Counted from the whole stretch's first letter, positions 98 to 58,369 are shown. The stretch is 63,913 nt of DNA, filler included, from Collodictyon triciliatum (GCA_043381765.1; 11 parts of 11 records of this genome joined end to end with filler, not necessarily neighbours in it), one strand, 5' to 3'. Made by a program: numbers and translations. Notes: generated by a model from the sequence alone, not told the origin.

Positions 98-1049
98 TTT
101 TCTTGGAGTTTCAATGATTAATAATATAATTTAATATTATGCTATTCGTTTTCTTGTTTTCTGCGAGTGTGTGCTTTTCAGCCCTTCACTGCCCGGTTTC
201 TATGCGCTCCAAACACACAGACTTGATTATAACATCTCCAGCCATTTTCTTGAAAAGATGAGAGTGTTTTGTGGTATGCGGCCACAGCCAAGACAAAGAA
301 AGGAGGCGGGAATCTGTCTCTTTTTTTTTTTTCTTGCGGTGTATTGAACAATTCGTACCACATATCTCTTCGCTCAAAATGCATTGGATCGTTTAACAAA
401 GAAAAAACAAAGGATGGAGCGGTATGTATGACGAGTACATCATCCAGCGGCTTCTTGGCGCTTTCCTTCTCGACGGGGACACCATCGGCCTTCATCAAGT
501 GTGCCTTAGAGTACCTCTCTCTAACAACTAATACGACTCTTGCGGAAATATGCGTCACTTGCCATTCTTGTCCGCCAATTGTTCTCCAGGGGGTGACGGG
601 GTTTGCGCGCGGCTGGCTTTTGTGACACACGTTATATATAAACTACAAAAATGCAAAATCAGACAACAAAACACAGAATGAAAAATCGCAACATCAGCCA
701 GGATTTGCATGGTTGACGCGGTCACATCGACCTATCGCGCACGACCACAAGGTGTTCCTGCATTATCCCTGCATGCTTAATCTCAACCCAATTCAACCCA
801 AACCCGTGGCAAACCAAACGAAGCGCGGCCTGTCAACCGCGCGACACAACGTACTCTCACCACGAAAATTGAGCCGCGATGACGCACGAAACGTGCGATC
901 ACACAGAACACAAAGCCACCGAGCGAGAAGGAAAGAGACAAAGACAAGGAGGTGAAGGAGTGAACAACGCTAAAGACAATCCCAGCCAGCACTCACCACA
1001 ACCTTTCTGCCCAACCAACCAACCGACCAACCGACCACCGTCCTTTGCC

Positions 1050-2384
1050 ATGGCTACTGCGGTGCTTCGCCGAACTGCCCTGCTCCTTCCTGGCCTTTCG
1101 CGACTCGTCCCGCTGCAACGCGCACACTCTGCCCTGCGCAACACACACGCCCGGCAGCCGACCGGCAAGGACGCAGCAATGGCCGAGACGAGCACGGAGA
1201 CTGCCGGACGCGTGTGCGTGGTGGGCGGGATCTTCATGGACCTTGTGATCACGACGCAGCGCCGGCCCAACGCGGGAGAGACACTCGTGGGGGAGTCCTT
1301 CGGCATGTTCATCGGGGGTAAGGGCTGCAACCAGGCGATCGCGGCGCAGCGCATGGGGGCGCAAACGGTGAGTCCCCGCCTCTTATCTGCCGACCGATGT
1401 GCTTGTGCCTGTGCTTGTGCTTGTGCAGGCCTCACCAACCCGACCGACTGCAGACCATGATCGGGCGCGTCGGCACGGACGGGTTCGGAGACCAGATTGT
1501 GGAGAAGCTGGGGGGCTTCGGGCTGAACACGCGGTGCATCGTCAGGGACGCGGAGAGCGGGACGGGGATAGGTAAGGAGCCGCTGCGGCGGTGTGCGTTG
1601 TGGGGAGGGGACGAGCATGTGGCGGCACAGGGGCACTGACAGCGTCTCTGCACACGCCGCAGGAAACCCGATTGTGGAGGCGGGCGGGCAGAACTCGATC
1701 ATCGTGGTGCCGCAGGCGAGCGGGCGCGTGTGCGCCGAGGACATGGACGGGGCGGAGACGCGCCGGGCGCTTGCCGACGCGGCGGTGGTTGTGGCGCAGT
1801 TTGAGACGCCGGCGGAGGCGTCTGTGCGGGCGGCGGAGGCGGTGCGGCGGGCGGGCGGGGCGGTGGTTGTGAACGCGGCGCCGATCCCGCCGGCCCTGGG
1901 CGACGCGCACCGGCGGCTGATTGCGCTGGCGTCCGTGCTGGTGGTCAACGAGATCGAGGCTGCGCAGCTGGGACGCGCCTACGCCGGGGGCGATGCTGCG
2001 GATGATGCGCCGCCCGCCACGGTGGGGCAGGCCGTCGGGCTGGGCATGCGGCTGCGCGACGCCACGCGCGTGCCCGTCCTGGTGGTGACGCTCGGCGCGC
2101 TCGGCCTCGTGGCCCTGGACGAGACCGGCGTCACGCACCTGGCTGCACACCCCGTCTCCGTCGTCGACACCACCGCCGCCGGCGACGCCTTTGTCGGCGC
2201 ACTCGCCGCAGCCCTCGCCGCCCGCCGCCCCCTCTGCGACGCCCTTGCGCTCGGCAACGCCGCCGGTGCCCTTGCCGTCACGGTTGTCGGCGCAGAGCCC
2301 AGCCTCCCCTCCGCCGCCGCCGTCCATGCCTTCCTCACCCGCGGCCACGTCCACTCCGACGTCGTCCCCGTCGCCATGCCCTGA
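1050..2384 (+). CDS. RBKS: Ribokinase (PfkB family), 3 exons (introns 1368-1453, 1572-1662), with possible N-terminal targeting peptide
   Basis: Motifs GGKGCNQAIAAQRMG, IGRVGTDGFG, NSIIVV, VVNEIEA, DTTAAGDAFVGALA. GT-AG introns join the frames; second in-frame ATG at 1179. Confidence 0.92.
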
Positions 2385-2473
2385 CCCGGCCCGACGCGCA
2401 AATAAACACACCTGCAAATCAGAAGCTGGCTGTTTGGACTCACCAGAAGACTCCCCAGAAGCAGGACGCCCCC

Positions 2474-5413
<2,940 letters not shown>

Positions 5414-6781: not shown

Positions 6782-7145
6782 CTTCAGTGAACTATTTTTG
6801 CCTTGTTGTGTATGTTTAGTTTTCTATTTTATCATCTGTCTTTTTGTGTCGAATGTACGCCCTTTTTTCTTTCTCCTGTAGGCATATCATATCTTCTTTG
6901 CTGTCTCTTCTTTTAGTTTGTCGTGTTTTGTTTTGCGTGTGCGTGACTTGATTTCTGATCGGTTCTTTCTGGTTGCACTGGTGTTGCAAAGGCAGGTAGC
7001 AGAAGGAATTTGACAGGTTCTAATGCACCACGAGAAGTACGACGAACTAAATTGGAAGACATGCCAGTTCGGGATGATGGACACTTTGAATCAGAGACCA
7101 GCTTGTCTAAGATTTTTCTTTTCCTTCCTTCTTTATTGCAGTCAG

Positions 7146-7265
7146 CTAGAAGGAGTATACCAATCGAAAGAATGGTAAACCTGGTGCGCTAGTATCCAAG
7201 GTCTCACCACCTTTTTCGCAGATATTGTGTGGCGGTGAAGGCTGCCAGGAAAGACCCGACAGCCT
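7146..7265 (-). ncRNA. Candidate Fanzor omegaRNA scaffold
   Basis: Four back-to-back stem-loops (7239-7265, 7204-7238, 7178-7203, 7158-7177) just downstream of the Fanzor frame, with G-U pairs that form only on the Fanzor sense strand. Confidence 0.6.
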
Positions 7266-7299: not shown

Positions 7300-9183
7300 T
7301 TAAAAAAACTTGAGTATATTTTTAGCGCTGTTAAAGTCCCTTGTCAAGAATACAGTTTATTTGCTTTCTGAGCGATGGCATTCTTTACATATGAGACATT
7401 TATACATCTTTTTTGAACTTCCTTTCAGTTTGATATGTTCCAGTTCTTTTTCGCAGCTGCAGCACATCTTGGAGGTTCTAAATACATTTACACTAACTGC
7501 TTCAAAACGTTTGGTTAGTATTTTTATAATCCTCTTCCGATTGTTGGCATATAAAGGTCTCATCGGACATTTTCTGCTCCAGTCTCCACACGTCAGTACA
7601 ACATCCTTGCCAAATGTCTTTTTGATTCGATTCATAGACAATTCTTCACTTGTTTTTGTATGAACATACTGCCTCCATCTCATCTTTGGAAAAGTTACTT
7701 GTTCATAAAAATGTGGATAGTTCTATCTGGTATCTTGATTTCATATATACATATTTCGAAATTATTCATAATCGACAGCGCATGAATTATGGTTACTCAG
7801 TTCTGTCTCTAAATCGATTAAAGATAGTCTCGATATCTCAAACCGCTGATTCTCTTCAAAAGTCCTGTAACCAAAAGAAACAGCACTTTGCAAATCTGTT
7901 GCCATCCATATCCCTAAGAATTGTATTATTTTTCTCGCACAAGAGTATTTTACGATTTTATAGAGATTTGCTACCATGTCTTTGGTGTCCGTGTAACATA
8001 ATTTCATACCTGTCTCATCCACCACGTAAACAAAATTAAACTTGCCTGAGTCCAATCCAACTTTTTTTTTTGTCGCTAATGAAGATAACTGCTGTTCGGA
8101 AAGTTCATCTATATAACCATATTCTTGTGTTTTGTTTTGATTATATATGGATTTTGAATTTGAAATACCTTTCTTTTGAAAGAATAATGACACCGCCAAG
8201 CCGTCTGTTCGTATCATATATTTAAAATCGTGGTCTCTTTGATGAAAGACTTTCTTCTTCATTTCAAAGAACTCATCTCGAAGTGTCTCTTTGCATCCTG
8301 ATATATTCTTCATTGATAATGTTTTTCCAGCTGACACTAATAGATATATCAAACATGCAGTATCTGGAGTAATATGACATGGTATATTATTAGTTCTTAC
8401 AAAAATTGGTTAAAGCAGTTTGGTTCCAATGCCCTCAAAAATGCAATTCATCTAAAACAGACACGGAATGTACTTATTTGGGTTGACTTTGACGACATAT
8501 TTGATAGCTTTTACAATATCGTTGGGAATGATATGATGCAAATGCGTTGTAGCCCATCCTTTAAATTGTTCTGGTATGTCGAGATTCATGAATATGGGTT
8601 TTTTTTTTTAACTTTCGTAACTCTGCCTTCTTAATAGCTTCCGTCATATTCTCATCTTTAGGAGCTGTTTAATTTATAAAGCGCAGTAACCTATTTACGA
8701 AATGTTTGTCAATGTTTTTTTTCTCCTTTATTCGATTCAAAGAAATGTTTGTCAATGTTATTATGATAAGCTGTTAACATTTACTTCGCCAAGTACGGGG
8801 ATACATGAGAATGTCCAACCAACGGAGGGCGTTCTTCTCGGGACAAAAGGAATCGAAAATCACTGAGATAAAAATCATCATACCATCTCTCATATCTGGT
8901 TTTTTAAACTTGTGGGTCTATCTTGTGAAACTACTCCAACTGTCTTAAAAGCGTACAAAAAAACATTGTCATCAATTGTTGGGAGTGGTTGTGATTTCAA
9001 TATGTAACATCTTGCAAACAGATAGGTGTCAGTAACCAAAGTATGACACAATAAAACTGTATCGTTGACTTTGTCATAGTCATCCGCATTCTTTACAATC
9101 GACTTTAGAGATGTTTTCACATTTTGATAGTCTGGTTTTACAGACTTAAGATTCTCAAACTCAAGCCGTTTTCTTTTCTTCAC
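7300..9183 (-). pseudogene. Fanzor1 (eukaryotic TnpB-family RuvC nuclease), frameshifted and nonsense-disrupted
   Basis: Ordered motifs: N-terminal KTSLKSI...TDTYLF; YHNNIDKHF..RLLRFIN; IRTDGLAVS; RuvC-I VGLDSG; GDWS; RuvC-II N(E>V)FRTSKMCCSC; CKEC zinc finger; RuvC-III TRDFNSAKNI after an in-frame TAA at 7357. Confidence 0.88.
8699..8759 (-). mobile_element. Micro retro-insertion, family A, inside the Fanzor frame
   Basis: 18-bp TSD GAAATGTTTGTCAATGTT (8699-8716, 8742-8759) around minus-strand TTTGAATCGAATAAAGGAG(A)n. Confidence 0.85.
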
Positions 9184-10626
9184 CAGAAAGTCTTTGTTTT
9201 ACTTTTTCCTTTAAAAAACCACCGAGTTTTCAATTTTAATAAAACTCTAGTCAATCAGTCTATTTGATAATAAAAAACAGCATCAAATCAATTTATGTAT
9301 AATTAAGCATCTACCAAGACTCTCAAAATGTGCGCATTGTGGCAAACAAACGCACAAAGTTTTTTTTTTTACAAGTGATTTGAGACAAAACGCTGAGAGC
9401 CTATTCGGCGAGTTCGAAATGACGGCTGTATAGCAATTGTAACTGAAAGTCAACATATCGGCCTAAACAACATGATTAACAGCGCAAGTGTGGGTTGGAT
9501 GGTTTTTGGAATGCATGTTTGCTGGCAGGTTTATTGGGTGGGTTCTGCCTAGGCCAACGCAAGGACTTGTTTGTATTTTTTGAATTTTAATGCGATAATA
9601 TTACATAAATGAAAACAAAGTATAAATTGATTATATGAATAAAATGAGATTATTAAGTATTTTTAATCTGATTGTATATACTAATATACTATTACATTAT
9701 TCAGGTTTTTTCTTGGATTCATCAAAGCTTCTGCTTTCGTCAATCCAGATTTAATTCGATGGTTGTCTGTGCAATAAACTGCTATATATGGTTACACTCG
9801 TTGTATAAAAGTGTTGTGCCTTGAAAGGGATAAAACCAAGTTCGTCACAGCCTTTGTAATGAAGTTTATCCATTTACCAGCCGAATGAGACCGAAAAAAA
9901 AAGGAAAAATGAAAAGTAAAAAGAAAGAAAACAAAAAAAAATTGAAAAAGAAAAGATAAATGAATCAGAGCAACTAATTCTGAGCATTATGTTCATACTT
10001 ATCTTGCTACCCGTGTTTCGATGGCTAGAGCTCGATCGATTTTTCTATTCCCCTTTATTATTATCATTATGATTATTATTATTGTTTCAAAGAGTTCACT
10101 CTGTCTTATTAGTAGTTTGCTGTACTCACGGGTCGGTGTTCGCTGGCGTCCTGATCGTCGGTGTGTCTCTGTGCACAACCTGTGTTATGAAGGATGCGGT
10201 AAAGTGACCCTTTTGCTCTCTGTGTTGGCTGCGTCGGCCTTCCTGGTTTGCGTACGGTCAGTAGGCATTCAATGGCGCAGAGCTGTGGCGTCGGTCTCCT
10301 GATTAACGGTCTCGTCCTTCTCAGGATTCCTCTTTCCGATCACTTTCTGTTTTTTTGTTTGTTTTTTCGGCTTCAGGACATGCTGGGTTGGCAGAAGAAA
10401 GAAAGAACCCGAGTGTAATATGATTATTTTATGAAGATTGTGTCCTTTTTTTCTCTGTCGGTGTTTAATATTTCTCAGCAAAGGGAACTTTTTCTTATTC
10501 ATATCGTGTTTTTTTTATTGTTCCTCTCGGCTCTGTCTCTCCTTGTGTGATCACCACATTTATTCGTATTGCAATTAATATAATTTGATCAGTCTTTGGC
10601 CTGGGTTGGAACATTGGCTCACTTCA

Positions 10627-11819: not shown

Positions 11820-14800
11820 TTTACTTTCTGAAGCTCATCAGAGGTATGCGATGTTAGAATAACGTTCATATTTGCCGAAATTTGTGAAATCCAGTCGAGT
11901 TTTTGAGGACAGGAGCTGATTTCACATGGAGAGAGATCATCAAATCCGTCAATTAGGACAACGTACTTTGACCTAGGATAATAATCATTGAAATATAATT
12001 CCCTAAGGAGTTATGTGTTTTCTCCTAAATACTATTGTTTGAAATTTTATTTTATCTTCACCCAGGGTCACCAGCTGTCTTATGGCACAATAATTTGAAA
12101 CTGTCTATCGTTGGAGATTCCGCTATTTCCGAAAAATTATATGCCAATTAGTCTGACTTTTATATTATTGTTATTATTAAGAAAAATTGGGTCAAATCTA
12201 TGAAAGTAATGACATACTGTGCAATCCATAAGCATTTAGGAGATATCGGAAAAAGCTGATAATTTTTTTTTGATAAATACATGAATAAATGAATGAAGCG
12301 AGTTATATCTGAAGAAGAAAACGTGAACTACATGCTATTTATGAATTTGAAGATAAATGTCGCTTTATATTTACTCACTGCGACAAACTGTTTCCTCTCC
12401 AACCATGAGCTACAAAATAATCGATAACTTTGTAGCCTTCTTCAAGTTTCAGTTTGGAAGCCAGGGCAGACATTAAGAAAGTCTTACCACAACCTGCTCT
12501 CAAGATAATTAGAAAAATGAGAAATAGAAATAAAAGAAAGCAAAAGGTAAACCATGACAACAAGAAAAGGGTAGAAACTACAATGAATTCAAGTGCGCAG
12601 GAAAAAAAGAGAGCAGTATTTGCATTCGCATATCTTATAACCTTTGGAGCCATGTAATATAATAGGCTTTCGATCACTTGGCATTGACGTTACCTTTAGA
12701 CATAAACAATGTATATTTATTTAAATAGTCTAATTTCTAGAATGGCTCCTTTTTTTTTTTTTGATGTGTTATTAATTTATAGGGAATTATACTAGGTGCA
12801 TGAGATTCTCCATAATGTAATCCCTTTCAACATAATACTGCTTGACGTGGATATGGAGTAAACGATTGTGCATATTTTGTTGCTCAGTTATCTAAAATTA
12901 AATGTGAGTCTTCTGATAATCATCAAAAATTCAAAAGGATGACTCTATCATAATACAAAAAAAAAAAGAGGGAAAAAACAATCAAGGCTGTTTCTATCAA
13001 ATTTCTTTACCGATTTTTCATCTCCTAAATCCTGAACAATCGCAGTCTTAAGATTCCTTAAGGACTTAATACACAGTTGCTGGATATTCTCATACGAAAC
13101 ATAACAAAATGACTCATGACTGACAACGTCTCTGAATTCTTTTTGTTTCAAGTCCTGTGCCATGAAGAAAAAAACAAAGTGAATGTAAACTGCGTTTTCA
13201 AAGACTTTGAGATGGAATAATATACTAAATTCTTTGTCTGAGAAATGTGTTTTTACACCGAATACTACCTCCTTCCCTACAGATTTCTCCCTAGAGTATA
13301 TAATCATCCTTGACACAGTACACCATTTCTCTGAAAGGATAAGTCTGATCTATTCATCGAATCAGAGATTAAGAAAAGGAAGGGCACGAGCATACCGATA
13401 GCTGGTATACAGTATACTTTGTATCTTTTACCTTCCCATAACGATCCAAGTTAAAACTATATGCATAACAAGACATAAAAGCAAGAGAAAAATACTACCA
13501 AATCATATATTATAAAAAATAAAGTAAAGCGTTTTTTTCTCCATCGACGAATTAACATAATCAAATATATATATTCAGGCATACTTACCTCTATTTCGTT
13601 CAAGCTCTTTTCAAGGCACGATTCAAGAAATTTGTATCTTTCTTTCTTGAATAGCATCAGTCTTGATAAAGATTCTTGAGGAGGAACCCATCCATAGCTT
13701 AAACATGATTTTATGTTAGCGATGGAAAAAAAAACATATTTTTATATATTTAAACCACACTGAACGTTCTTTAAGTCCGTGTTGAAGAACAAAAGATAAT
13801 ACTTATCGTATATGTTAAAAAAAACTGCATGCAAAGCAATAAACAATAAAATATTCGGTATAGAGTTGGTTTGTTACTCCACCAATCGCCTATGAAAGTA
13901 ATGTAGTAATCACAGTTTGCGATAGAATCCAATATAAAATCCCAAATCTAGTTATTTTGACGTGACTAATCTCCACATATATTAGGGTTATATACATTTC
14001 TTTGAAGGGTGTTTATACCTAACGAATTTTTTATTGCAATTCCAAATAAAAGTGAAGAGAAAAAACCTTTTCTTCATCCTGTAGTGTTTCTTTTATCATA
14101 CCAACATCAGAATACACAAGCTCGAATCCAACATTAGCTTTGGCACAGTGCTCCTTTAGCCTAATATCCCATTAATAATATTACTATAAGCAATATGAGG
14201 TAAATTATATCGAATACACACATGCATACATGATAAATAAAATTACTTAAGCTCTGTAGATATAGATTTTTTTTATTTTATTTAGAGTACCAAACCAAAT
14301 TATTAAAAAGCTTAAACAGTAACCTTGGAATGGTGAATTCGCGAAAGTAGTTGAAATCGTCTACCAGATCCACATCGTGACAAGACACAAACAAACGAAG
14401 TACTCGTTCAGTGACCGACTTTATGCTGACCGGCTTCACAAAACTCGCCTTAGTTTGGAAAAAAGTTGAAATGGATTGAAATAGGCGACATACCGAAGAT
14501 ATTGTAGATTGGAAAATAATTTCCTTAAAAATATTCTTAAACATTGTTAAAGCTAGACACAAAGTCAGATAAAGAGGAGAACGAAAAAAACTTGTGAAAA
14601 AAACTCATGGTTACATGGCATGTCTAAAAAAGAAGATAATTCATCAAATCACCACACAACGAGGATATGTTCCTTAATGTTTTCTTTCATTTAAAGAAAT
14701 ATACGATATTGATAAAAAAAAAAGCAAAGCAATAATACTAGAATACCACCAAAATTAGAATTTTTTTTTTAAAAAAAAACAAGGAAAAGGCGATATACTT

Positions 14801-29195: not shown

Positions 29196-32100
29196 CTTAT
29201 TTTTTGATAAGTCCAGATATACTAGGCCTGTAAGAGCGAAGCATGACTCCGAGAAAGATACAAGCTGTGAAAAGGTGGTGAGTTACAATATGGTCAATAA
29301 TAAAATTTGTTGGTGGCCTTTTTTTTATTTATTTATGTGAATATTACTTCGTTTGAATGGAGGTAGAGTTTCTTTAGCCCAACTAAATGCCTGAGCCAAT
29401 CAGGAATCTGAGAGAGCTTCATATCGCCCATCCACAGCGAAGTTGCATGTTGAATTCCATGATTGTTAGGGGAGTACTGCACATTCATATATTGAATTTC
29501 TTCCAATTCTTGAAGGGTACTGGAGCTTAATGGATGTTTAGGAGACTCAGTCTCATTTGGATGTAGGTGGTCGTTTATGAATTGGGATGCAAACGAGAGT
29601 TCTTGCTCAGAAAGCGAATGGGTCGCATGAACATCGGGCTGGTCAAGCTTGGATATTGTGCTTCCGTCAAGCCTCAGAGCCATTACTTTCTCAAGCAGTC
29701 TTTTCGACAGTTCGTCTTTCTTTTTCTGCAGATGAGTCACCAATTGGCTGTAAAATAATTGTTCAACTTTTTTCTTTGGAGCTTGGGAATCGCTAGTGTC
29801 TTCCTCTTTCGACAGTTCTACAAATGCACAAACGTCATCTGATGATATGTGATACATATCAACCATCGTCCTTTCATCCAGTATGTCTTGAATTTCTTTG
29901 AAACTTATCCAGCTTTGATTTGAAATTGTATCGCTTAGTTTTAAAAAGCCATACTCTCGCAGCCACTCCACAAATTCACCCTGGTACATATCAGCCAAAG
30001 GAGTATATTTAATTGGAAGCAGTTCGTTCATCACTTTTTTAGAAAGCTTCGGCTCATCTGATTTCAATTCACCCAGGTATATACAAACTTGATTCAAAGA
30101 AGGTCGGAGCTTGTATTTTTGCCTCCAGCACGCTCTGATAAGGTGGTTAAGCTCACGAGTGGCTTCTTTCGGTATTTCAAGCCGTAATCCCCTGATAATG
30201 AAACTCTGTGTCTCTTTTTCATTCATAAAAGGCTCGACGCCAGAGAACATGTACCAAACGAGCATTCCCAAAGCATACACATTACTTGGTTCTCCACGAT
30301 GCCCCTGATTTACTTCATCATCACCATACATTTCTGGATTATCATTATAAAGCGGTTTACATGAAACTTCATGGATTTCCGGTGCTTGCCAATTAACAGT
30401 CCCGTCTCGCTTGTTCTCACCAAATCTCGTCGGTAAGTTTGACCCGACTTTATCAACTTCACGATGGCTCACTATCCCAAAATCCACAATTTTTACTGTT
30501 GTTTCGCCCACAATCATAACATTATCGGCCTTCAAATCTTCGTGATATAGATGCTTGGAATGCATGAAAATGAGACCCTTGCAAAGCTGCTTTGTGTAAG
30601 AAATTATTTGAGGTAATGTTGGCTTGATATTTTTCTTCTCCAACATCGCTTTCAACGAAATACCTGCATTCTCCATAATCATGAAAAAGTCGTCATCTTT
30701 ACGATACACACCAAATAGTTCGACAATATTTTTACATTCCTTGCATTCATATAGAAACTTGCTTTCAAAAATGAGCGATTGAATCACCTGGCTGAGGGTC
30801 TGCTTCTTACTCTTCTGGACGGTTTGGATTTTCACCACAGCACTTTTTCCTTCGAACATCGTTGTATAAACTCGCCCATATGCCCCCTTTGCGAGATAAC
30901 CTGACAGTTCTATTTTTTCATGAATCCATTGGTCTTTTAATTCCCGGTCGATTGAATCCATCTCAAGAACTGCTTCAGCAGGTTGCGACTTCTTTTTCTT
31001 TTTCTCTCTCACCACAGAGGTAAATCTCTTCGAGATTCCTTTATTTTTCAAGAAAAAATTATTTACTAATTTTCGATAATATTTAATCGAATTAATATTA
31101 ATTTAAAAATAAACATAAATTCGAATATAGTTATTATAATAAACCTTGTTCCAGATAGACGCGCCCTTGCTTCACTGTACTCGCTTCTAGTTTATGGTTT
31201 CTGGTACTACATACTTTCAATTCTGAGTCATCTATCTTTGCCGATGTTTGAATATAACCGTCTAATTCATGGCGCTGGCATTCAGGGCATTCAAATTGAT
31301 ATGCTTCCACAAAATTTGGTCGAATTGATGATATTTGTTTGATGAAGGTTGAAAGGATATCAAAAATCCTGACGAATCTATCACCTTCATGAACGTTATT
31401 TTCGTATTTTCTAATCTTGACTGAAATATTCTTCTGGTGGATTTGATACAAAATAATCAAACCGTCTCCAGGAAGCAGTTGAATTTCATCCGTTCCTGTT
31501 TTGTAGGAAGCATTTAGATGTATGAACGCCACATCTCTGAAAAATTGGTCGTCATACTGAACTCCGGCTTGTGCCTCTTTTGTCAAACGAAGCGCTTGAA
31601 TGACAACGTTACTTTTGTCAGAGAGTTGGACTCCACCATTGGTCATTATTTTTACAGAGGTTTCAGCGATGCAATTTGACTCTGGTTTATCATTCCATAA
31701 TGCTTTGAGATTTTGGCAATCCTCCATCAATGCGGGGAAGGCGATGCATTCTCTGTTGAATTGAATCCCAAGGCCGAAATGGTCAAAGATTCGAAGAATT
31801 GTATTGAACACATGTCCATCCATTTCTGTTTTCAATTCGTGTTTTATTCGGTCTTTTAGCTTGCCCAACAAAATGATGCCACTTGTGTCCTTTCCAATGC
31901 CTTTGAAGCTGAAGACACAGCGAAAAATGTTGATGAGAAAGAGCGGGTCCAAAAATAAAATATCCTTGATATTTTCAAGTGATGAATACCAAACGACCGA
32001 GCCAAGGTCATGGAGAAATTTGAGAGCACTTTCGCACCCATTTCTGTCCATACCCAGCTGCTTCTCGGCAAAATCGTGAGTGTCTTGGATTCGTTCGTAC

Positions 32101-32427
32101 TTTGATACTTGGCCTTTTGAATCCAGATAATCTTTTAGCCCAATGTATGTTTTTGGAACGTCCTTGTTCATGTTATCAAGTCTCATCATTCCTTTGTATA
32201 TCTCTCCCTTCAAATCTGAGATTTTTGTTCCACTCTTGTTGCTTACTTTCAACTCTGTATTGATGAAGATGTGGCGAGCCTTTTCATCCAGTTTCTGCTC
32301 ATTTTCTTTTTTGATTCGTATGATTTCTTTCTGCATCTCCTGGCTATACGTTTGATTTTCGCAATCTTGGCGAGTTCCAGCAATTATGATTTTTGAGCCG
32401 GGCGCGAAGTCATCGAGCATTTTGACC
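29196..32427 (-). CDS. Roco-family protein fragment: C-terminal half of Roc, COR, kinase, SAM-like region, LRRs (introns 31039-31144, 29265-29347)
   Basis: Roc G4/G5 IIIAGTRQD and VSNKSG; COR motif FLHDLGSVVWY..DPLFL; kinase GAYG/VVK/HEDLKADN/DFG/WQAPE; LRRs LKKLYLHSN and LVYLDLSKN. Intron phases are compatible. Confidence 0.85.
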
Positions 32428-32471
32428 CTGATATTTATTTATTCTAGATATATAGAATAAATAAATATCAG
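32428..32471. repeat. Perfect 19-bp inverted repeat with 6-nt spacer
   Basis: CTGATATTTATTTATTCTA-gatata-TAGAATAAATAAATATCAG. Confidence 0.95.
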
Positions 32472-34039: not shown

Positions 34040-34845
34040 TTATTCTACGCGGAAAGTCTGCTGGTTGGATTGAATTTCGAGGACAGCGTCATACAGCGAT
34101 GCAACAATGATATTGTACGGCCCGTCAGTGTCACCAATAGCAGCATTGAAGTTTAATCTTAATGACATCAAGTCGCTACCGGATGACTGAATGTCTGTTC
34201 CGACGATCTCCCCTTCGATTGCATCAAGCACCTTGCGGAGATTAAAGCCAATCATAAATTCACTGGCTGGGCCCCGGCAAGTTTGTCCATAATATCTATT
34301 AATTAAATCACTATTGAAAGTCGCGTTTTGACCACCGGCAGCATTAGTAACAGTAAATGCCGAATGATTTGCATTTGATACAATACTACAAGTAATTTCA
34401 TTATTTGCAGCACCACCACCTGCAACTGCTGGTTTATTTCCTGTTATAACAGCCCCATTTACCGACGCGCCATTATCAGATAGTATAACAACTGGAGCAT
34501 TTACAGTTACCGCACTTTGAGCATTTGCTCCTTGTGCAGGTACAGTGCATGAAATTGCAGTTTGCAAATTCTGCATTTGATTTATATAATTTCCAGCAAA
34601 GTTTCGGCCATCAAACCCGAACGGCCCATTGTATTCACTTCTCACGTGAGTAAGACCAAGGGCCTTCTGCAGTTCCAAGAATGCTTGGGGCGCATTGCCT
34701 TCACAGTCCATTGGCTGCAAAGGATAATAAAACGAACCAAGCTGAAGCTGGGCGTCAACAAGTGTTGGGGGCTTGTGCTTTCTATCTTTGCCAGGAACCA
34801 AAAATGTGCCTTGCTCTCGCTGCTTGAAAAACGCAATATATACCG
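34040..34845 (-). CDS. Major capsid protein C-terminal part, Polinton-like virus/virophage-type double jelly roll (5'-truncated by contig end)
   Basis: QLQLGSFYYPLQP...AFLELQKALG...FMIGFNLRK...GTDI...LRLNF...YDAVLEI matches the PLV-type MCP C-terminal pattern. The frame is open to the contig end and intronless. Confidence 0.75.
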
Positions 34846-47159: not shown

Positions 47160-47946
47160 CTACAAAAAGTCAAAACATCAACGATGGGGAGAAACACTGG
47201 GCATCACCCACACCCCGCTGACCGCAAGCTGGAGACAACCATGAACCTTGCAAGTCCTCCCAAATCACCGCTCTCTAATGCTTCATATCACCAATAGGGA
47301 GCTGTGGATAGGCACACGCGCGGCAAAAGCTGGCAAAGTCTCCCAACAATGCACACTTTGCAGCAACGGTGATGAATCCATTGAGCACACATTTGTGCAA
47401 TGTCGCTTCGCTCAAAACCTGTGCAGAACAGCCGGTGAGATTCTCCGACTGACACTCAAGACGGCTGCGGTTGTTTGTCCAATCCAGGCGATATTTAGAC
47501 CTCTGCAACAGCTGCGCCCAGATGCAAAAACGCTATGGGCAGTGACGCGAGGCCATTTGCTATGGACTATGTGGATAGCACGCATATATTCACGCAAAGC
47601 AAGACTCAACAACCAGCCACCCATTCCTGATAATAGGTTGAATGACATTATACAAATCTCTTTTCTCAACATCTTCCTTCGCCACCCGCACGTTCTCTAC
47701 TACTCAGACCCTGTGAGAAGAGACATGTGGAAAGAGGCTGAGAAAGAAATTTAAACCTCACCTTGTATCTCTCATGTAAGCACAAGACCCAGGCTACAGG
47801 CCACACAGCAGGATGCAATTGCTGATTACCGACTACTTCTCCGCCACCCGGCCAACAAGTAGCGTCCATGGAAACAATGACTAGCGAACCAAAGCCAACA
47901 TCTCCACCATCTTGCACAAAATTAAAAGGAACAGAAAAAGAAAAAC
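47160..47946 (+). mobile_element. 5'-truncated L1/Tx1-type LINE: zf-RVT C-terminus, 3' UTR and A-rich tail
   Basis: CTLCSNGDESIEHTFVQCRFA (zf-RVT), LLWTMWIAR, upstream in-frame stop; the 3' UTR ends in the family-B sequence. Confidence 0.85.
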
Positions 47947-52499: not shown

Positions 52500-55400
52500 A
52501 TGGTTGAGTGAGAAAGGAACGATCTCTTGAGAGAGCTTATCGTTTGCGCAAAGAAATCATAGACAAATGCGGTCATTATCAATTCTTTGGGAATAAGCCC
52601 GCCACGAGCGCACATTGTTCCCTGACATTTCCTTATACCCAATCAACAAACAGGGTACATCATCTTCATCATCACCTTCATCCCCATAATCAGTATTCAT
52701 GCGTCGTGTGCACACCCGGCAAGAACACACGGATCAACTCTAATATTGGATGCATATCTCAGGGGCGACAATTGGCAATCCAGCCGAACTTTGTTATCCT
52801 CCCTGTGATTTCCTTTACTACTATTTTATGATATATGTGAGTGTACACATGCATCCCCTTGACCATCTCTTTTTTTTTTCTTTCTTTTTGGTCATCAGTC
52901 CATCCTCGTAGGCTTATAAGTGTATGCTTTGTGATAGCGATTGCGGCCGAATTATAAGCCTGGGAATCGGACGAGACTTTGCGTTCGATTGGTAAGCGTG
53001 TGTGAGCACAAAGACTGAAGCCCGTCTCTTATGAGTACATGTCACGCAAGAAGCGCAGCGCAGCGAGCTCCACAGAGAACATGGATCCGGATGCTTCATA
53101 CTGCTCCACAGTCGGCATAGGCGTATACAAAACCATCGGAGGCGGAAACGGTGTAAAGTCTAACGGCGCAGCGAGTCGTCCGTTCATATCCAAAGGATTG
53201 TCAATTTTCAGCGGGTTTCTGACGGGTTTGTTCTTGGTTGGCTCTACATCGGGCTCGGTGGCTGCCTCTAGTTTCAGTGATGACTGGTTATCTTTGATGG
53301 ACGGAAAAGGGTGTTTAGATGAGATATCAGGGGAATTTGTTCTCTTTGGGTTGGACAGTTTTTCTCTGGAGGATATCGCTGGTGAATGCTCTTGATTTGG
53401 TTGTTTTGCTGTGGGCAAGGCTGTGGACACGGACCGCGCCTGCTCAAGAAAAAGAAAAAAAAAAGGATTCGAATAGGCCATGAATATTCTAGGGATTAAT
53501 TCTTCAGATTGTCTGTTTTATATTTGCGCTTATCTTATGGATTAATATATACTTTCAAAGATTCTAATGTTTAACAAGGGACAAGGGACAATAAACTGAT
53601 AGAGCTAAATGCAACATAAAGATATAGCAAGCTTCTTACGTCAATTTGCACTGATTGAACACTAGACGTTGAAGCGACTTGTGGTTTGAGTGCGTGATTT
53701 GAATCGGTGGGTGCTATGCTTGAGTTACTTAGAATTTGAAAGCCTGATTTGGAGTGTATAAATCCGTCCCTGGAAGTTTCAGGATAGCGGTTTCGATATT
53801 GGTCGGTATGACTCTAGAATCATATAGAATAGAAGAATGAGTGGTATATTTATACATGAATAATCATAATATTCTTCCCTTCAATTTGTGCAAGACAAAA
53901 TATTTCAATGGATTATTCTTTTACATTTGCATTTAAGAGACTATGAAGATATGACTTTAAACCTGATTAGCCAGCTGATTTAAGGAGGGTAGTTGAAGTC
54001 GATTTTCATTGGATGTATATGGTAGGTTTGATGTGGTGGACATTGCTTTAGTGACTAATGGCGTGCTACCCATCGAATACTATAATTTTTTTTGTTTTTT
54101 GTTTTCAAGTGATATTTTAGAATGCAGGTAAAAGCGAAATTAATTGTTCGCTTGTAAAGTCTTCGAAGCTTTTTTTTTTTCCAATTCGTTCATATATTTT
54201 CTTCCAAATACCTGATTTAAATTATGGTTGTATGATTTTTCTGGTGCAGATGGTGTTTTCAATGAGTCGGACTCTTGATTTTGGGCTTGTGTGGGCATAG
54301 GAACACTTTTTTGTGGTTTCTTGATGGATTTTTGTTGCGGAGACATTGGAGATGTTGAGGGTGCTTGCGAATCTTTAGCACTTTCAATTGGTTGAACAAG
54401 GAATTTGTGTTGAGAAGGAGTTTCAAGCTTCACTGGTTGAATAATGTCCTGATTTGAAGATGAAATTAAGTCTCTACGCAGTTTAAGTAAAATCAAATTA
54501 TCAAATGCAAGAAATAGATAAGAGGAAAAAAGAGAGGAAAAAAAAAAAAAACATGTAGGAAACGGCTACAACCAAATTAGGAATATTTACCGAAGCATGT
54601 GGCTTACAGAACAATTTTAGATACCAAATAAATAAGAAAAAATAAATTGATATATATATATATTCTTGTTTCTTGATTCATTGAAGCCAACCTGCTGCTG
54701 CGGTTGAACAGTAAGGAAGGGAAGACTTGATTTGTGTTCATGGTCTTCAAGACCGAGAAAGTCCTGCCTCTGGGGCCTTGAAAACATTTGGGAACCAGCT
54801 GGTACAGCAGCATAAGATGAGCGAGTGTTGAATGGCGAATTCATGGTATTGATTGACTTTTGTTCTGGCGATTGAAAGAAAGGCGATATGGTGCTTCGAG
54901 AATTTGAAATTGTATTCTCAGATTTCAAAGAATCAGTATGAGAAGAAGCTTGTTGCTGAGTAAGATCGATGATATTGGATGAGAGAGTTTTCTTTTTGGG
55001 GGATGATTTGGCTGCTGGCTCTGAATAATCTGCTGTCCTCTTTCGTGGTGGTTTTTTCATTTGGCTATCAGATTGTGCTGCTGACAAGTTTTTGGCATCG
55101 CTGAAGTCTTGGTTGTCCACTGGTGGCATTAGATGTGGGGTGGTTATCTGTGTGAGGGGACCCGCTTGAGAAGCTGTTTGATGCAGATTTGTCAGACTGG
55201 GTGTTTGCACAGAAACTCTACTTAGGTAGAGATGTGACTGGGGGCGCTGCTGGGTTTGGGGTGACTGAGGCGACTGTAGCGGCTGAGCAGGTTGTTGGGA
55301 TTGCGGTGTTGGTGAAGCTTTGTATGGAGAAGCTTGGGCATGGTATGACTGTAGCGAATGTGGCGAATGGGGATATTGTTGAGGCTGAAGAAATGGGACA

Positions 55401-58039
55401 GATTGTTGAGATTGTGAAGTTGATTGTGGTCGGTAAGTTGTGGGCGGCTGTTGTGAAGAAGGTGCCGGCTGCGGTAATTGCGCCTGCTGGTATGACTGGC
55501 GTTGATTAAATGTGTATCGATAGGCTGAAAATTGTGGCTGCTCAAACACTATTGATTGTGGCCTGATGAGTTGCTCGTGGTGATGCACTTGGGATTGGTG
55601 GGATTGTACATGCGACTGTTGCAATCGCTGAAGTTGCTGAGGTTGCTGAGGTTGCTGAGATTGCTGAGATTGTTGCGATTGTTGCGATTGTTGCGATTGT
55701 TGCGACTGTTGCGGTTGCTGTGGTTGTTGCGGTTGCTTTGATGGGGGTTGGAGCTGTGGAGGTAGCAGTTGTGGGGGTTGGAGCTGGTGGGAGTTGGAGC
55801 TGTGAGAGCTGTATAAAGTTTCGAGGCCATATTGTGGCCTAAGTTGGAGTTGAGGATGGATGGTTGATTTCATAGAATTTTCCGACGCTCTTTCCATCTG
55901 AACATTGTTGAATGAAGCAGGACCAGATTGTTGGGGTGGCTGAGATTGAAAATTATGATGTGAATGTGTTTGAGAGTTTTGGTTAGTATGACTTTGGGCT
56001 TGGGTTAGCGGCTGGGATTGTGCTTGAAGCTGAGACAGTGTTCGAGATTGGAATGGATTGTGTGGTGTATTTAAGGGCGAGCCTTGCGAGCCAGGTGGAT
56101 TTTGGCGCAGCGATTGATCTTGTATGGATTGAGGTTGAAGAGACTGGAGAGATTGGTGGATTTGCTCGTGAGGGGGACGAATAGAGTACATTGCTGACTC
56201 TTCGGGTTGATCTGCCTGTTTTTTCGTTGGGGGATTTTTTTGGTCAAGCAGGGATTGGTTTTGGTGAATTGGAGACAGCTGAGACCGCACTTGTGTGGAA
56301 GGGGATAATTGAGGAGATTGCATTTGAGACTGTGGCTGCGGTGATGGTTGCAGTTGTGCCTGTGGTTGAGCTTGTTGAGGATTTCGATGTGGGTGAAGCA
56401 CTTGAGAATGTTGGTGGGGTGGAAAAAGTGAGGGTGGCTGTAGCTGTGTGGAATATTTGTTAGACTGAGATGTTTCTTGTCCAAGGGGATACATGGGCGG
56501 TCTAGATCCGGTTTGTACTGGAGACTGTGATTGGATGCTCGACGGAGAATGAAGAGGCGGAGGTGGTTGAGGGAGACTATATGGTGAAGATGTCTGTCCT
56601 GAAGTATGTTGTTGACCCCATTTCTGGCTCCCAAACACCGGTGCTGCCACTCCGCCATATGCTGCCGAGGATCCGGCTGCGGGACGATACGAGACAAAAA
56701 CATGAGATGAACTTCCAGGCTGGTCATCATTTGGTGGGTTGTTGCGAGGGGGCGGATTTTCTTGTCCACTTTTTGACTTTCCCTTCACTTTGGGGGTTGG
56801 CTTCTTCTTCCCAGAATCCATGACGAAAGTCTGTTGGGCAGGCTGTAGAGGAGGTGGGGGTTGTGGCTGCAGTTGAGACTGCAGTTGCAGGTGTGGTGCT
56901 TGCTCATGAATTGGTGCCGCACCTTGACCAGGGCGGATAATGTGGTTGGGGCTTTGTTGTTGGGAGACTCCATGGGACGGATGAGTTGCTTGGACTGGTC
57001 TTGTAAGAGAGGGAAATGATGAAAGCGATTGCAGCTGTGATTGAGGTTGACCTGAGCTTTGTACTGGGGGTTGAGATTGAGACAGGGATTGAGATTGGTG
57101 TTGTGGTTTGTTTTCAAATTGATGGTGTGGCTGAGCAAGGATTTGGGGTCGGGATTGGGTTTGGGTTTGGGGTTGGGGTTGGGATTGGGATTGGGATTGG
57201 GATTGGGATTGGGATTGGGATTGGGATTGGGATTGGGATTGGGATTGGGATTGGGATTGGGATTGGGATTGGGATTGAGGTTGGGATTGAGGTTGGAGCT
57301 GAGGTTTGTGTTGAGACAGAGATGGCATATGCGGCTGGAATTGGAATTGGAATTGAAACTGGGACTGGGATTGGGATTGAAACTGAGGTTTAGACTGAGA
57401 TTGGGTATGTGATTGGGACTGAGTATAAGCCTGAGATTCAGATCCAGTCAGTGATTGTGGTTGTGATTGTGATTGTGATTGCGATTGAGGTTGTGGTTGA
57501 GATTGCGATTGTGGTTGATTGGTATCGTCTGTTATTTGCGGGCGAGATGCAAATGACGATATAGCGGAAAGTACATATGGAGGGGGTGGTGTTGGACGTT
57601 GATGTGAATTTTGATGGTAATGGTGCAGTTGTTGCTGGAGATGATCACCACCAATTAGTCTTTGCCCACGCCCTTGTGATGGATGAGATTGCCACACATT
57701 CTGTGCTTGTGCTTGTGCTTGCGCTTGTGCTTGTGCTTGTGCTTGTGCTTGTGCTTGTGCTTGTGCTTGTGCTTGTGCTTGTGCTTGACCTTGTGCTTGA
57801 CCTTGTGCTTGACCTTGTGCTTGTGCTTGCCCTTGTACTTGCCCTTGCCCTTGTACTTGCCCTTGTACTTGCCCCTGTATTTGTCCTGCAGCGGGCTGGC
57901 TCATGGCTTCTAAAAGTTTTGTAGATAAATTCAAGGCATTTTCTTTCATAGTATCGAAGAATTTCTCATATAGCTCTGGCATGGTGCATGAACTTGGTGG
58001 GTTGATAGATCGTCCTATAGGTTCGACTCGACCGTGCAA
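52500..58039 (-). CDS. Large Gln/Ser/Pro-rich low-complexity protein, multi-exon, incomplete
   Basis: 1140-codon ORF with QA/QS/QP repeats and an NLS-like KKPPRKR; further downstream exons at ~54140-54480 and 53029-53440. Confidence 0.65.
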
Positions 58040-58369
58040 AAGTGAGAGCTGTGGACCCGAGTAGTTTTTGGAGGCAGAAAAGAGAAAAGAAGAAAAAAGA
58101 AAAGNNNNNNNNNNNNNNNNNNNNNNNNNNNNNNNNNNNNNNNNNNNNTTAATTAATTAANNNNNNNNNNNNNNNNNNNNNNNNNNNNNNNNNNNNNNNN
58201 NNNNAAAAGTAAAAAGTAAAAAGTAAAAAGTAAAAAGTAAAAAGTAAAAAGTAAAAAGTAAAAAGTAAAAAGTAAAAAGTAAAAAGTAAAAAGTAAAAAG
58301 TAAAAAGTAAAAAGTAAAAAGGGAAAAGAGCATGTTTGCATTTAATGGTCTTTATACTATTAGAAATGT

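Follow-up and report, generated by a model that had tools for sequence, protein, structure and literature searches.

The stretch of DNA analysed here, referred to throughout as the window, is 63,913 nucleotides (nt) long and comes from Collodictyon triciliatum; all positions are counted from its first letter. On its minus strand, between 9183 and 7204, it carries a full-length pseudogene of the nuclease Fanzor1, with homology far beyond chance. A working Fanzor1 is a protein of ∼650 amino acids (aa) that associates with an omegaRNA, whose template is the 3' end of the Fanzor1 gene together with the right end of the transposon. Directed by the guide in this RNA, it cuts matching DNA through a single RuvC site (Asp, an alternative Glu, Asp) that sits beside a C4 zinc finger. 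The relic runs from a GTG at 9183-9181, formerly the ATG start codon, to a terminal TGA at 7206-7204, and the minus-strand frame from 9198 to 7300 alone gives most of a Fanzor-like protein, broken by stops.

The limits of the relic come from a frame-aware dynamic programme that aligned the DNA with P0003, the closest intact protein (648 aa, from metagenome collections), and from matches to Fanzor1 chains of the Protein Data Bank (PDB). Residues 1-647 of the 648 in P0003 align with window positions 9183-7210, and 363 of the 636 matched columns are identical (57%). The read-through translation of the relic, with X at the stops (P0001), matches P0003 at E = 4.5e-166 and, among PDB chains, Parasitella PpFz1 at E = 7.1e-14 and Spizellomyces SpuFz1 at E = 1e-7; the sole further PDB row at E ≤ 10 is a chance match at E = 1.4. 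A family profile and alignment made from 20 intact relatives (A2) finds SpuFz1 (E = 2.3e-82, covering chain positions 398-1027), PpFz1 (7.9e-80), and GtFz1 (1.8e-63), all near full length. The next rows after Fanzor1 are TranC and Cas12g at E ≥ 0.007, and no Fanzor2 or TnpB chain reaches E ≤ 1 with this profile. In full-length likeness, then, the PDB searches with P0001 and A2 mark the relic as Fanzor1 and not as Fanzor2 or TnpB. An earlier, sequence-only reading had called the locus a Fanzor1 relic of a ∼600-aa family and had suggested that the repaired protein be compared with family profiles; both the read-through translation and the A2 profile match solved Fanzor1 proteins, and the intact relatives are 572-648 aa long, so the identification and the size both hold. 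That reading placed the relic at 7300-9183. Its 9183 boundary stands, but its 7300 boundary does not, as the coding relic reaches the TGA at 7206-7204. The family is large, with 3147 cluster representatives at E ≤ 1e-3, of which 537 remain at E ≤ 1e-30. The sole Pfam match of the relic is a sub-threshold one, to Cas12f1-like_TNB in the zinc-finger part (E = 0.014; 16 bits against a cut-off of 26.3), and Pfam gives nothing above cut-off on the intact relatives P0003-P0005. The relic would have been missed by Pfam alone.

The available text of Bao and Jurka (2013; PMC3627910) gives the Fanzor signature as D-X(125,275)-[TS][TS]-X-X-C4-X(5,50)-RD together with a conserved Gly (G500) and a conserved Glu (E536). 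The hallmark blocks are all found on the minus strand in order. The RuvC-I motif, D-S-G-K here and D-P-G-K in the family consensus, lies at 8041-8052 by alignment to P0003, A2, and SpuFz1. Its Asp is kept within VGLDSGK (codon 8052-8050) and aligns with the invariant D364 of P0003, in which 194 residues separate D from TS; the family-invariant Pro that follows has become Ser (8049-8047). The C4 zinc finger (7378-7464), placed by alignment and by the sub-threshold Cas12f1-like_TNB match, keeps both of its CxxC pairs (7464-7453 and 7389-7378, with Cys codons at 7464, 7455, 7389, and 7380). The RuvC-III block, R-D-F-N-S-A-K-N, aligns at 7318-7341 and retains the Arg-Asp of TRDFNSA at 7341-7336, which is 12 residues past the last Cys in P0003 numbering. 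The alignment thus bears out the claim of the sequence-only reading that the blocks occur in order with the RuvC-I Asp, the RuvC-III Asp, and the CxxC/CxxC finger retained. A2 has 27 invariant columns; 22 of them are unchanged in the relic, and the other five read M1V, P365S, E391G, R487P, and E555V.

The loss at position 555 concerns the active site. As described in the accessible part of Jiang et al. (PMC10530073), the canonical RuvC-II Glu of Fanzors is replaced by Gly or Pro, and an alternative Glu located ∼45 residues past the lost canonical one is common to all Fanzors. Alignment places G-D-W-S, with Gly in place of the canonical Glu (PMC10530073; the G500 of PMC3627910), at 7576-7587 on the minus strand, and the Gly of YGDWS is kept at 7587-7585. 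At 7471-7485 on the same strand lies V-F-R-T-S, in which the Glu of the family motif VNEFRTSK has become Val (codon GTA at 7485-7483, a single change from GAA), with the TS retained at 7476-7471. Thus, from the Fanzor pair of a Gly or Pro and an alternative Glu, the window copy has the Gly and lacks the Glu. P0003, 20 of the 20 A2 rows, and the sibling fragments P0190 and P0191 (described below) all have Glu at this position, and its absence is a lesion of the window copy. The sequence-only reading saw this Glu-to-Val change and its single step from GAA correctly; the residue that it called the RuvC-II Glu is the rearranged Fanzor Glu and not the one at the canonical TnpB position. In SpuFz1, the residues D383, N385, E541, and D606 coordinate two magnesium ions, according to the available text of Saito et al. 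(PMC10432273). A constant chain-to-protein offset of 394, itself inferred from the alignment of P0001 with SpuFz1, puts three aligned residues on SpuFz1 D383, N385, and E541; by our mapping, the Asp of the relic would align with D383 and its Val with E541. The equivalent mutation in ApmFNuc, E467A, abolishes cleavage in the account given in the accessible part of PMC10530073.

Beyond the catalytic Glu, the relic has lost its start codon (ATG to GTG, 9183-9181), and its homology path contains eight in-frame stops, namely TAA at 8783, 8671, 8412, 7960, 7764, 7359, and 7302 and TAG at 8454, along with about 10 frameshifts in the alignment to P0003. One of the frameshifts is due to a 43-nt tandem duplication in the REC part at 8699-8762 on the minus strand (copies 8699-8719 and 8742-8762), detected by a repeat finder and by joints in contigs from two public sequencing runs; these joints cross the duplication at 8699>8743, 8704>8754, and 8706>8755, and some siblings are without it. 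The stops at 8454 and 8412 are not intronic because they fall inside ungapped conserved blocks aligned to PpFz1 and P0003. The stops and frameshifts of the sequence-only reading are therefore present, and its verdict of a dead copy is upheld by the lost start, the stops, the frameshifts, the Glu-to-Val change, and the alteration of five of the 27 invariant columns. The window copy holds no open reading frame (ORF) able to give a Fanzor1 protein; it is no longer capable of making the protein, and RNA-guided cleavage by it is not expected.

The solved Fanzor1 proteins (SpuFz1, 8gkh; PpFz1, 9cf0; GtFz1, 9cer) share their domain order with the relic over the full length. Its alignment with PpFz1 and SpuFz1 takes in the REC/WED part, RuvC-I, the GDWS site, the E-x-x-TS motif, and the zinc finger. 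Unlike them, it is a pseudogene, and Val takes the place of the Glu that we map to SpuFz1 E541. Their identity to the relic is low, and the family of the relic belongs to another subclade, abundant on giant-virus contigs. Fanzor2 and the bacterial TnpB proteins of IS200/IS605 and IS607 share the RuvC fold with an inserted zinc finger and a guide RNA encoded at the 3' end, but neither reached E ≤ 1 with the A2 profile, and, unlike IS607-like elements, the relatives of the relic sit between inverted ends with a DDE_3 transposase.

These relatives were found on viral contigs. A scan of metagenomes for close relatives with DNA yielded only one distant locus, L001, at 21% protein identity, and a scan of viral contigs with a single protein gave no relatives. 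In a scan of viral contigs with the A2 profile, 442 of 599 pattern stretches encode relatives. We kept 80 of the 442 (L002-L081), which with L001 makes 81 loci. Many of the 80 lie on contigs with the record-name prefix GVMAG, which we take to denote giant-virus genome bins. In a FastTree phylogeny of 147 rows, the relic and P0003 pair with a support of 100 and fall within a seven-row set together with L002-L005 and one further representative, with a support of 96. On this tree, the nearest placed relatives of the relic are giant-virus Fanzor1 copies, and the family may have been exchanged between virus and host in the past.

The viral copies are built as transposons. The L002 element spans 3316 bp between perfect 32-nt inverted ends (8637-8668 and 11921-11952), and it carries, besides Fanzor1, an oppositely oriented gene for a DDE_3 transposase of 346 aa (Pfam E = 1.3e-13). 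Of the 72 viral loci that could be tested (8 of the 80 could not), 60 have inverted ends of 18-50 nt. Their core, roughly TACACC, a variable stretch, and then CATTTAAAACGCC, is common to L002, to 59 further viral loci, and even to the 21% identical L001. The right end lies 47-135 nt past the Fanzor1 stop, and at 47 nt in L002-L004. In 25 of the 80 loci, Fanzor1 is preceded by a DDE_3 ORF on the opposite strand. The commonest form is Fanzor-only, with ∼2.4 kb between the inverted ends (∼2.35-2.45 kb), and longer classes of 2.6-6.3 kb carry DDE_3 or cargo. In 36 of the 80 loci, a small ORF immediately precedes Fanzor1 in the same orientation (e.g., L023:5738-6280); it has a coiled-coil-like Lys/Glu-rich tail and no Pfam family, and it may be either a true small protein of Fanzor-only elements or a chance overlap with the left end. 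The Mariner/Tc1-Fanzor1 arrangement has been known since 2013, and the available text of PMC3627910 describes both PGv-1 of Phaeocystis globosa virus, with a transposase and Fanzor1, and PUl-4, a Fanzor1-only form with Mariner ends. The viral relatives of the relic share this build, with inverted ends and either DDE_3 or Fanzor1 alone, a likeness drawn by description only, and the window likewise has Fanzor1 alone.

The relic also belongs to a multi-copy family in its host. Contigs from the two public runs, X1 and X2, which stem from one study and are of uncertain kind, were aligned to a stretch that ended at 9500. Matching contig pieces number 338 in X1 and 342 in X2, extend from 7161 to beyond 9500, and are 85-99% identical to the window; in X1, 18 are at ≥99% identity, 75 at 95-99%, 134 at 90-95%, and 111 below 90%. 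No contig piece of another run, X3, matched the stretch, which is no proof of absence. The family cover begins in the 7161-7247 bin, is almost nil at 7074-7160, and is nil below that, so that it does not enter the 6900-7073 flank. It therefore ends ∼43 nt past the stop codon of the relic, to be compared with the 47 nt in L002-L004. At the other side, the cover is still present at 9500; 9184-9500 (minus strand) is thus a 5' non-coding part of the repeated element, which reaches to at least 9500 and whose left end was not located. Many of the contig pieces have internal deletions, and dozens of diverged versions exist. Other copies read G at 8412 and 8671, where TAA becomes CAA, and have an extra G after 7526, the site of one of the frameshifts. 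Two sibling fragments sourced from short contigs at the National Center for Biotechnology Information (NCBI) are each without one or two of the lesions: P0191 keeps its frame through 7554-7526 and retains the Glu as part of VDEY, and P0190 reads VDEF and shows Gln in place of the relic's 7359 stop, yet is frameshifted further upstream. Since sibling copies are without some of the lesions, these appear to be partly private to the window copy, and less-decayed members evidently exist. The sequence-only reading supposed that intact family members might be present elsewhere in the genome, and other members, whether intact or not, do exist, as the ∼340 contig pieces per run and the Glu retained in P0190 and P0191 show. 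No second copy occurs in the window, where tblastn with P0003 and P0004 finds only the relic locus (other matches at E ≥ 0.17). Old multi-copy Fanzor1 families with partial and ghost loci, such as CMe-1A (PMC3627910) and Spu-1 (PMC10432273), show the same mixed decay stages and internal deletions in the available text of these papers, and here as there some sibling copies keep features that the window copy has lost.

Taken together, we consider it very probable that the relic descends from a Fanzor1-bearing DNA transposon of the cut-and-paste type, as a non-autonomous copy, now decayed, that lies in a eukaryotic chromosome. To move, the element would have relied on a DDE transposase, either its own or one acting in trans; the copy has lost its start, its frame, its metal-binding Glu, and any recognisable inverted ends. 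By analogy with the viral relatives, the mode of transposition is inferred to be of the mariner/IS630 type; because the window copy shows neither ends nor a TA duplication, this assignment is drawn from the relatives only. The relic probably fits the Fanzor-only, non-autonomous form. The non-autonomous state proposed in the sequence-only reading agrees with the absence of any transposase remnant from the window and with the predominance of the Fanzor-only form among the viral relatives. That reading also held that no transposase lies within the apparent ends; the absence of a transposase extends to the window as a whole, but the apparent ends do not hold up, as none is recognisable by sequence.

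Several observations weigh against the interpretation as a decayed transposon copy. No inverted ends or target-site duplication were found for the relic, and its left end was not located. A repeat finder and short-word blastn gave no terminal inverted repeats, nhmmer with 120 viral end arms gave nothing at 7150-7200 or 9600-9700, and the best pairing of the two flanks was equalled by 100 of 300 shuffles. A resemblance between 7156-7185 and 9680-9657 noticed by eye was dropped, being unsupported by the end profile and the shuffles. A TA is present at 7156-7157, where the family cover ends, but with the left end not located no duplication is readable. In this respect the relic, lacking detectable inverted ends or a TA duplication, differs from the Mariner/Tc1 Fanzor1 elements described in the accessible part of PMC3627910. 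The window yielded no transposase, whatever its type: the 503 ORFs that neighbour the viral relatives give a single match to it, a Fanzor fragment, and the 10 ORFs in the 4.5 kb upstream of the relic contain no Pfam transposase domain. The frameshifts, moreover, fall into sets that compensate (2+2+1+1, 2+1, 2+1, and 1+2), so that five long blocks with 509 of the 636 aligned columns (∼80%) lie in one frame and the shifted segments measure only 27-308 nt. Random decay does not predict such compensation, for which we have no explanation; paired or complex indels, past selection for an open frame, and alignment bias are possible causes. Finally, the FastTree phylogeny has many long branches and mostly unnamed rows, and X1 and X2 may include the window's own sample, with contigs giving neither copy number nor chromosomal location.

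Downstream of the catalytic blocks, the 3' end of the relic contains a structured module at 7161-7265 on the minus strand, a candidate omegaRNA scaffold remnant recognised by its fold score, by a structure shared with viral relatives, and by the family cover that ends near 7161. The window segment 7400-7100, folded as the minus strand, scores z = -3.06 against shuffles, none of 100 being as good. RNAalifold on the window together with L002, L003, and L005 returns 21 pairs in three helices. Helix 1 (7265-7254 with 7247-7239) and helix 2 (7238-7234 with 7208-7204) are kept in the window, while part of helix 3 and the preceding conserved TTGATTTTAC-like stretch are lost. In this comparison of four sequences, with the structure predicted on the same alignment, 97.5% of cells are paired (83.7% in shuffles, none of 500 as high), 10 pairs are changed on both sides against 3.2 in shuffles, and slid controls pair at 36-56%. 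The hairpins of the relic would fit an omegaRNA scaffold at the 3' end of the gene, as in SpuFz1 in the available text of PMC10432273. In the main viral group (L009-L081), a strongly conserved module lies ∼60-170 nt before the right end and consists of CGTCTTTCAC, a hairpin, AAAAGTTAGACCATC, a second hairpin, and TATTGATTTTACA; it is probably the omegaRNA scaffold of that viral group. RNAalifold on 48 viral 3' ends gave only a 4-pair stem, with four divergent rows misaligned. Compensatory changes are many in the first hairpin of the main viral group, whose four pairs have both sides changed in 20, 7, 8, and 1 of the 48 sequences, respectively.

With helices 1 and 2 kept through compensatory changes relative to three viral relatives, and with a region that folds better than its shuffles, the question arises whether the 3' end outlived the protein gene as an orphan "ghost" omegaRNA that intact Fanzor1 copies elsewhere use in trans. 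Ghost loci that work with SpuFz1 are described in the accessible part of PMC10432273. We regard this as very unlikely for the window copy, where the TTGATTTTAC-like stretch and helix 3 are eroded and the right inverted end is unrecognisable; the comparison covers four sequences only, on whose alignment the structure itself was predicted, and the intact partner protein that it would need in this genome is so far hypothetical.

Given that the nearest placed relatives lie on giant-virus contigs and that the relic stands in an AT-rich block, it might instead belong to one segment of giant-virus DNA that was inserted into the chromosome and decayed there, rather than being a host transposon copy. 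A virus-like frame is present 25 kb away: a 267-aa open frame at 34040-34843 on the minus strand, cut by an N run and with no Pfam family, has as its nearest atlas clusters viral hypothetical proteins (0.92) and capsid proteins of nucleocytoplasmic large DNA viruses (NCLDV; 0.87), with recognition so low that it serves as a lead only. However, the 1128 ORFs from the 81 fetched loci match the window only at the relic, bar one weak kinase match, and a giant-virus insertion was set aside as unsupported. The family cover stops ∼43 nt past the stop codon and does not enter 6900-7073, as expected of a discrete repeat; dozens of diverged, internally deleted versions exist; and a poly-Gln ORF of host-like composition begins ∼340 nt beyond the right end. 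An integrated piece of viral DNA is thus highly improbable.

There is next to no chance that the gene is alive, with its stops read as sense codons (TAA/TAG as Gln) or lying in introns and its ORF ending at the TGA at 7206-7204: the in-frame stops on the homology path are indeed, eight out of eight, TAA or TAG, with TGA as the terminal stop, three of the eight align with Gln in P0003, and sibling copies have CAA at two of the stop positions, but recoding and introns were rejected, as the frameshifts persist under any code, the start codon and catalytic Glu are gone, the stops at 8454 and 8412 sit in ungapped conserved blocks, two neighbouring host ORFs backed by Pfam matches (a kinase of 590 and a COR of 435 codons, AT-poor to moderate) have 53 CAA/CAG and no TAA/TAG and end in TAA, and one-step mutation of intact relatives gives 23% TGA, at which rate eight of eight non-TGA stops has P ∼0.13.

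The Pfam neighbours in the window are eukaryotic and comprise a ROCO-type gene, two NIDO ORFs, FG-GAP ORFs, a PfkB kinase, and a zf-RVT fragment. The ROCO-type gene (29333-32438, minus strand) encodes COR-A (E = 9.8e-12) and, after it, a protein kinase (E ∼6e-37); the two ORFs lie in different frames, 31 nt apart. The zf-RVT fragment (47245-47754, plus strand; E = 1.7e-8) is probably a remnant of a long interspersed nuclear element (LINE). The PfkB-family sugar kinase ORF, at 75% G+C, lies in a block of 68-69% G+C at 1000-3000, and the rest of the window is mostly 30-40%; a tRNA gene at 26-97 on the minus strand adjoins this G+C-rich block. At 54617-58156 on the minus strand, an open frame of 1179 codons shows Gln/Ser/Pro dipeptide repeats and a strong GC skew. 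Microsatellites are many in the window. Runs of 44 N occur in ten pairs, the two members 12 bases apart, every ∼5.82 kb from 5729 (880 N in total), and they resemble masking and not biology.

Catalogues of Fanzor1 genes and their remains in protists, fungi, animals, and giant viruses go back to 2013, and those of Fanzor1 biochemistry to 2023. A dead Fanzor1 on a mariner-type transposon is of a kind already known, and the relic is an ordinary one that matters little by itself and has modest value as a pointer. The viral relatives give a clean picture of the subfamily: its ends are conserved, Fanzor1 occurs in it alone or together with a transposase, and its 3' hairpin carries compensatory changes. 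A eukaryote that harbours many diverged copies of a family whose nearest placed relatives are mariner-type elements of giant viruses fits the old idea, put forward in the available text of PMC3627910, that viruses spread Fanzors. A larger reading, which we hold to be unlikely, is that a mariner-type Fanzor1 family otherwise met mostly in giant viruses crossed into this eukaryotic host and spread there until it numbered at least dozens of copies; some of them may be intact and may use in trans an orphan guide RNA still given by the surviving 3' hairpins of the relic. If such a crossing from virus to host took place, the host would be a natural system for watching the spread of a Fanzor-assisted transposon, and an intact host copy, if one exists, would offer a candidate compact nuclease and a way to learn how Fanzor serves its transposon.

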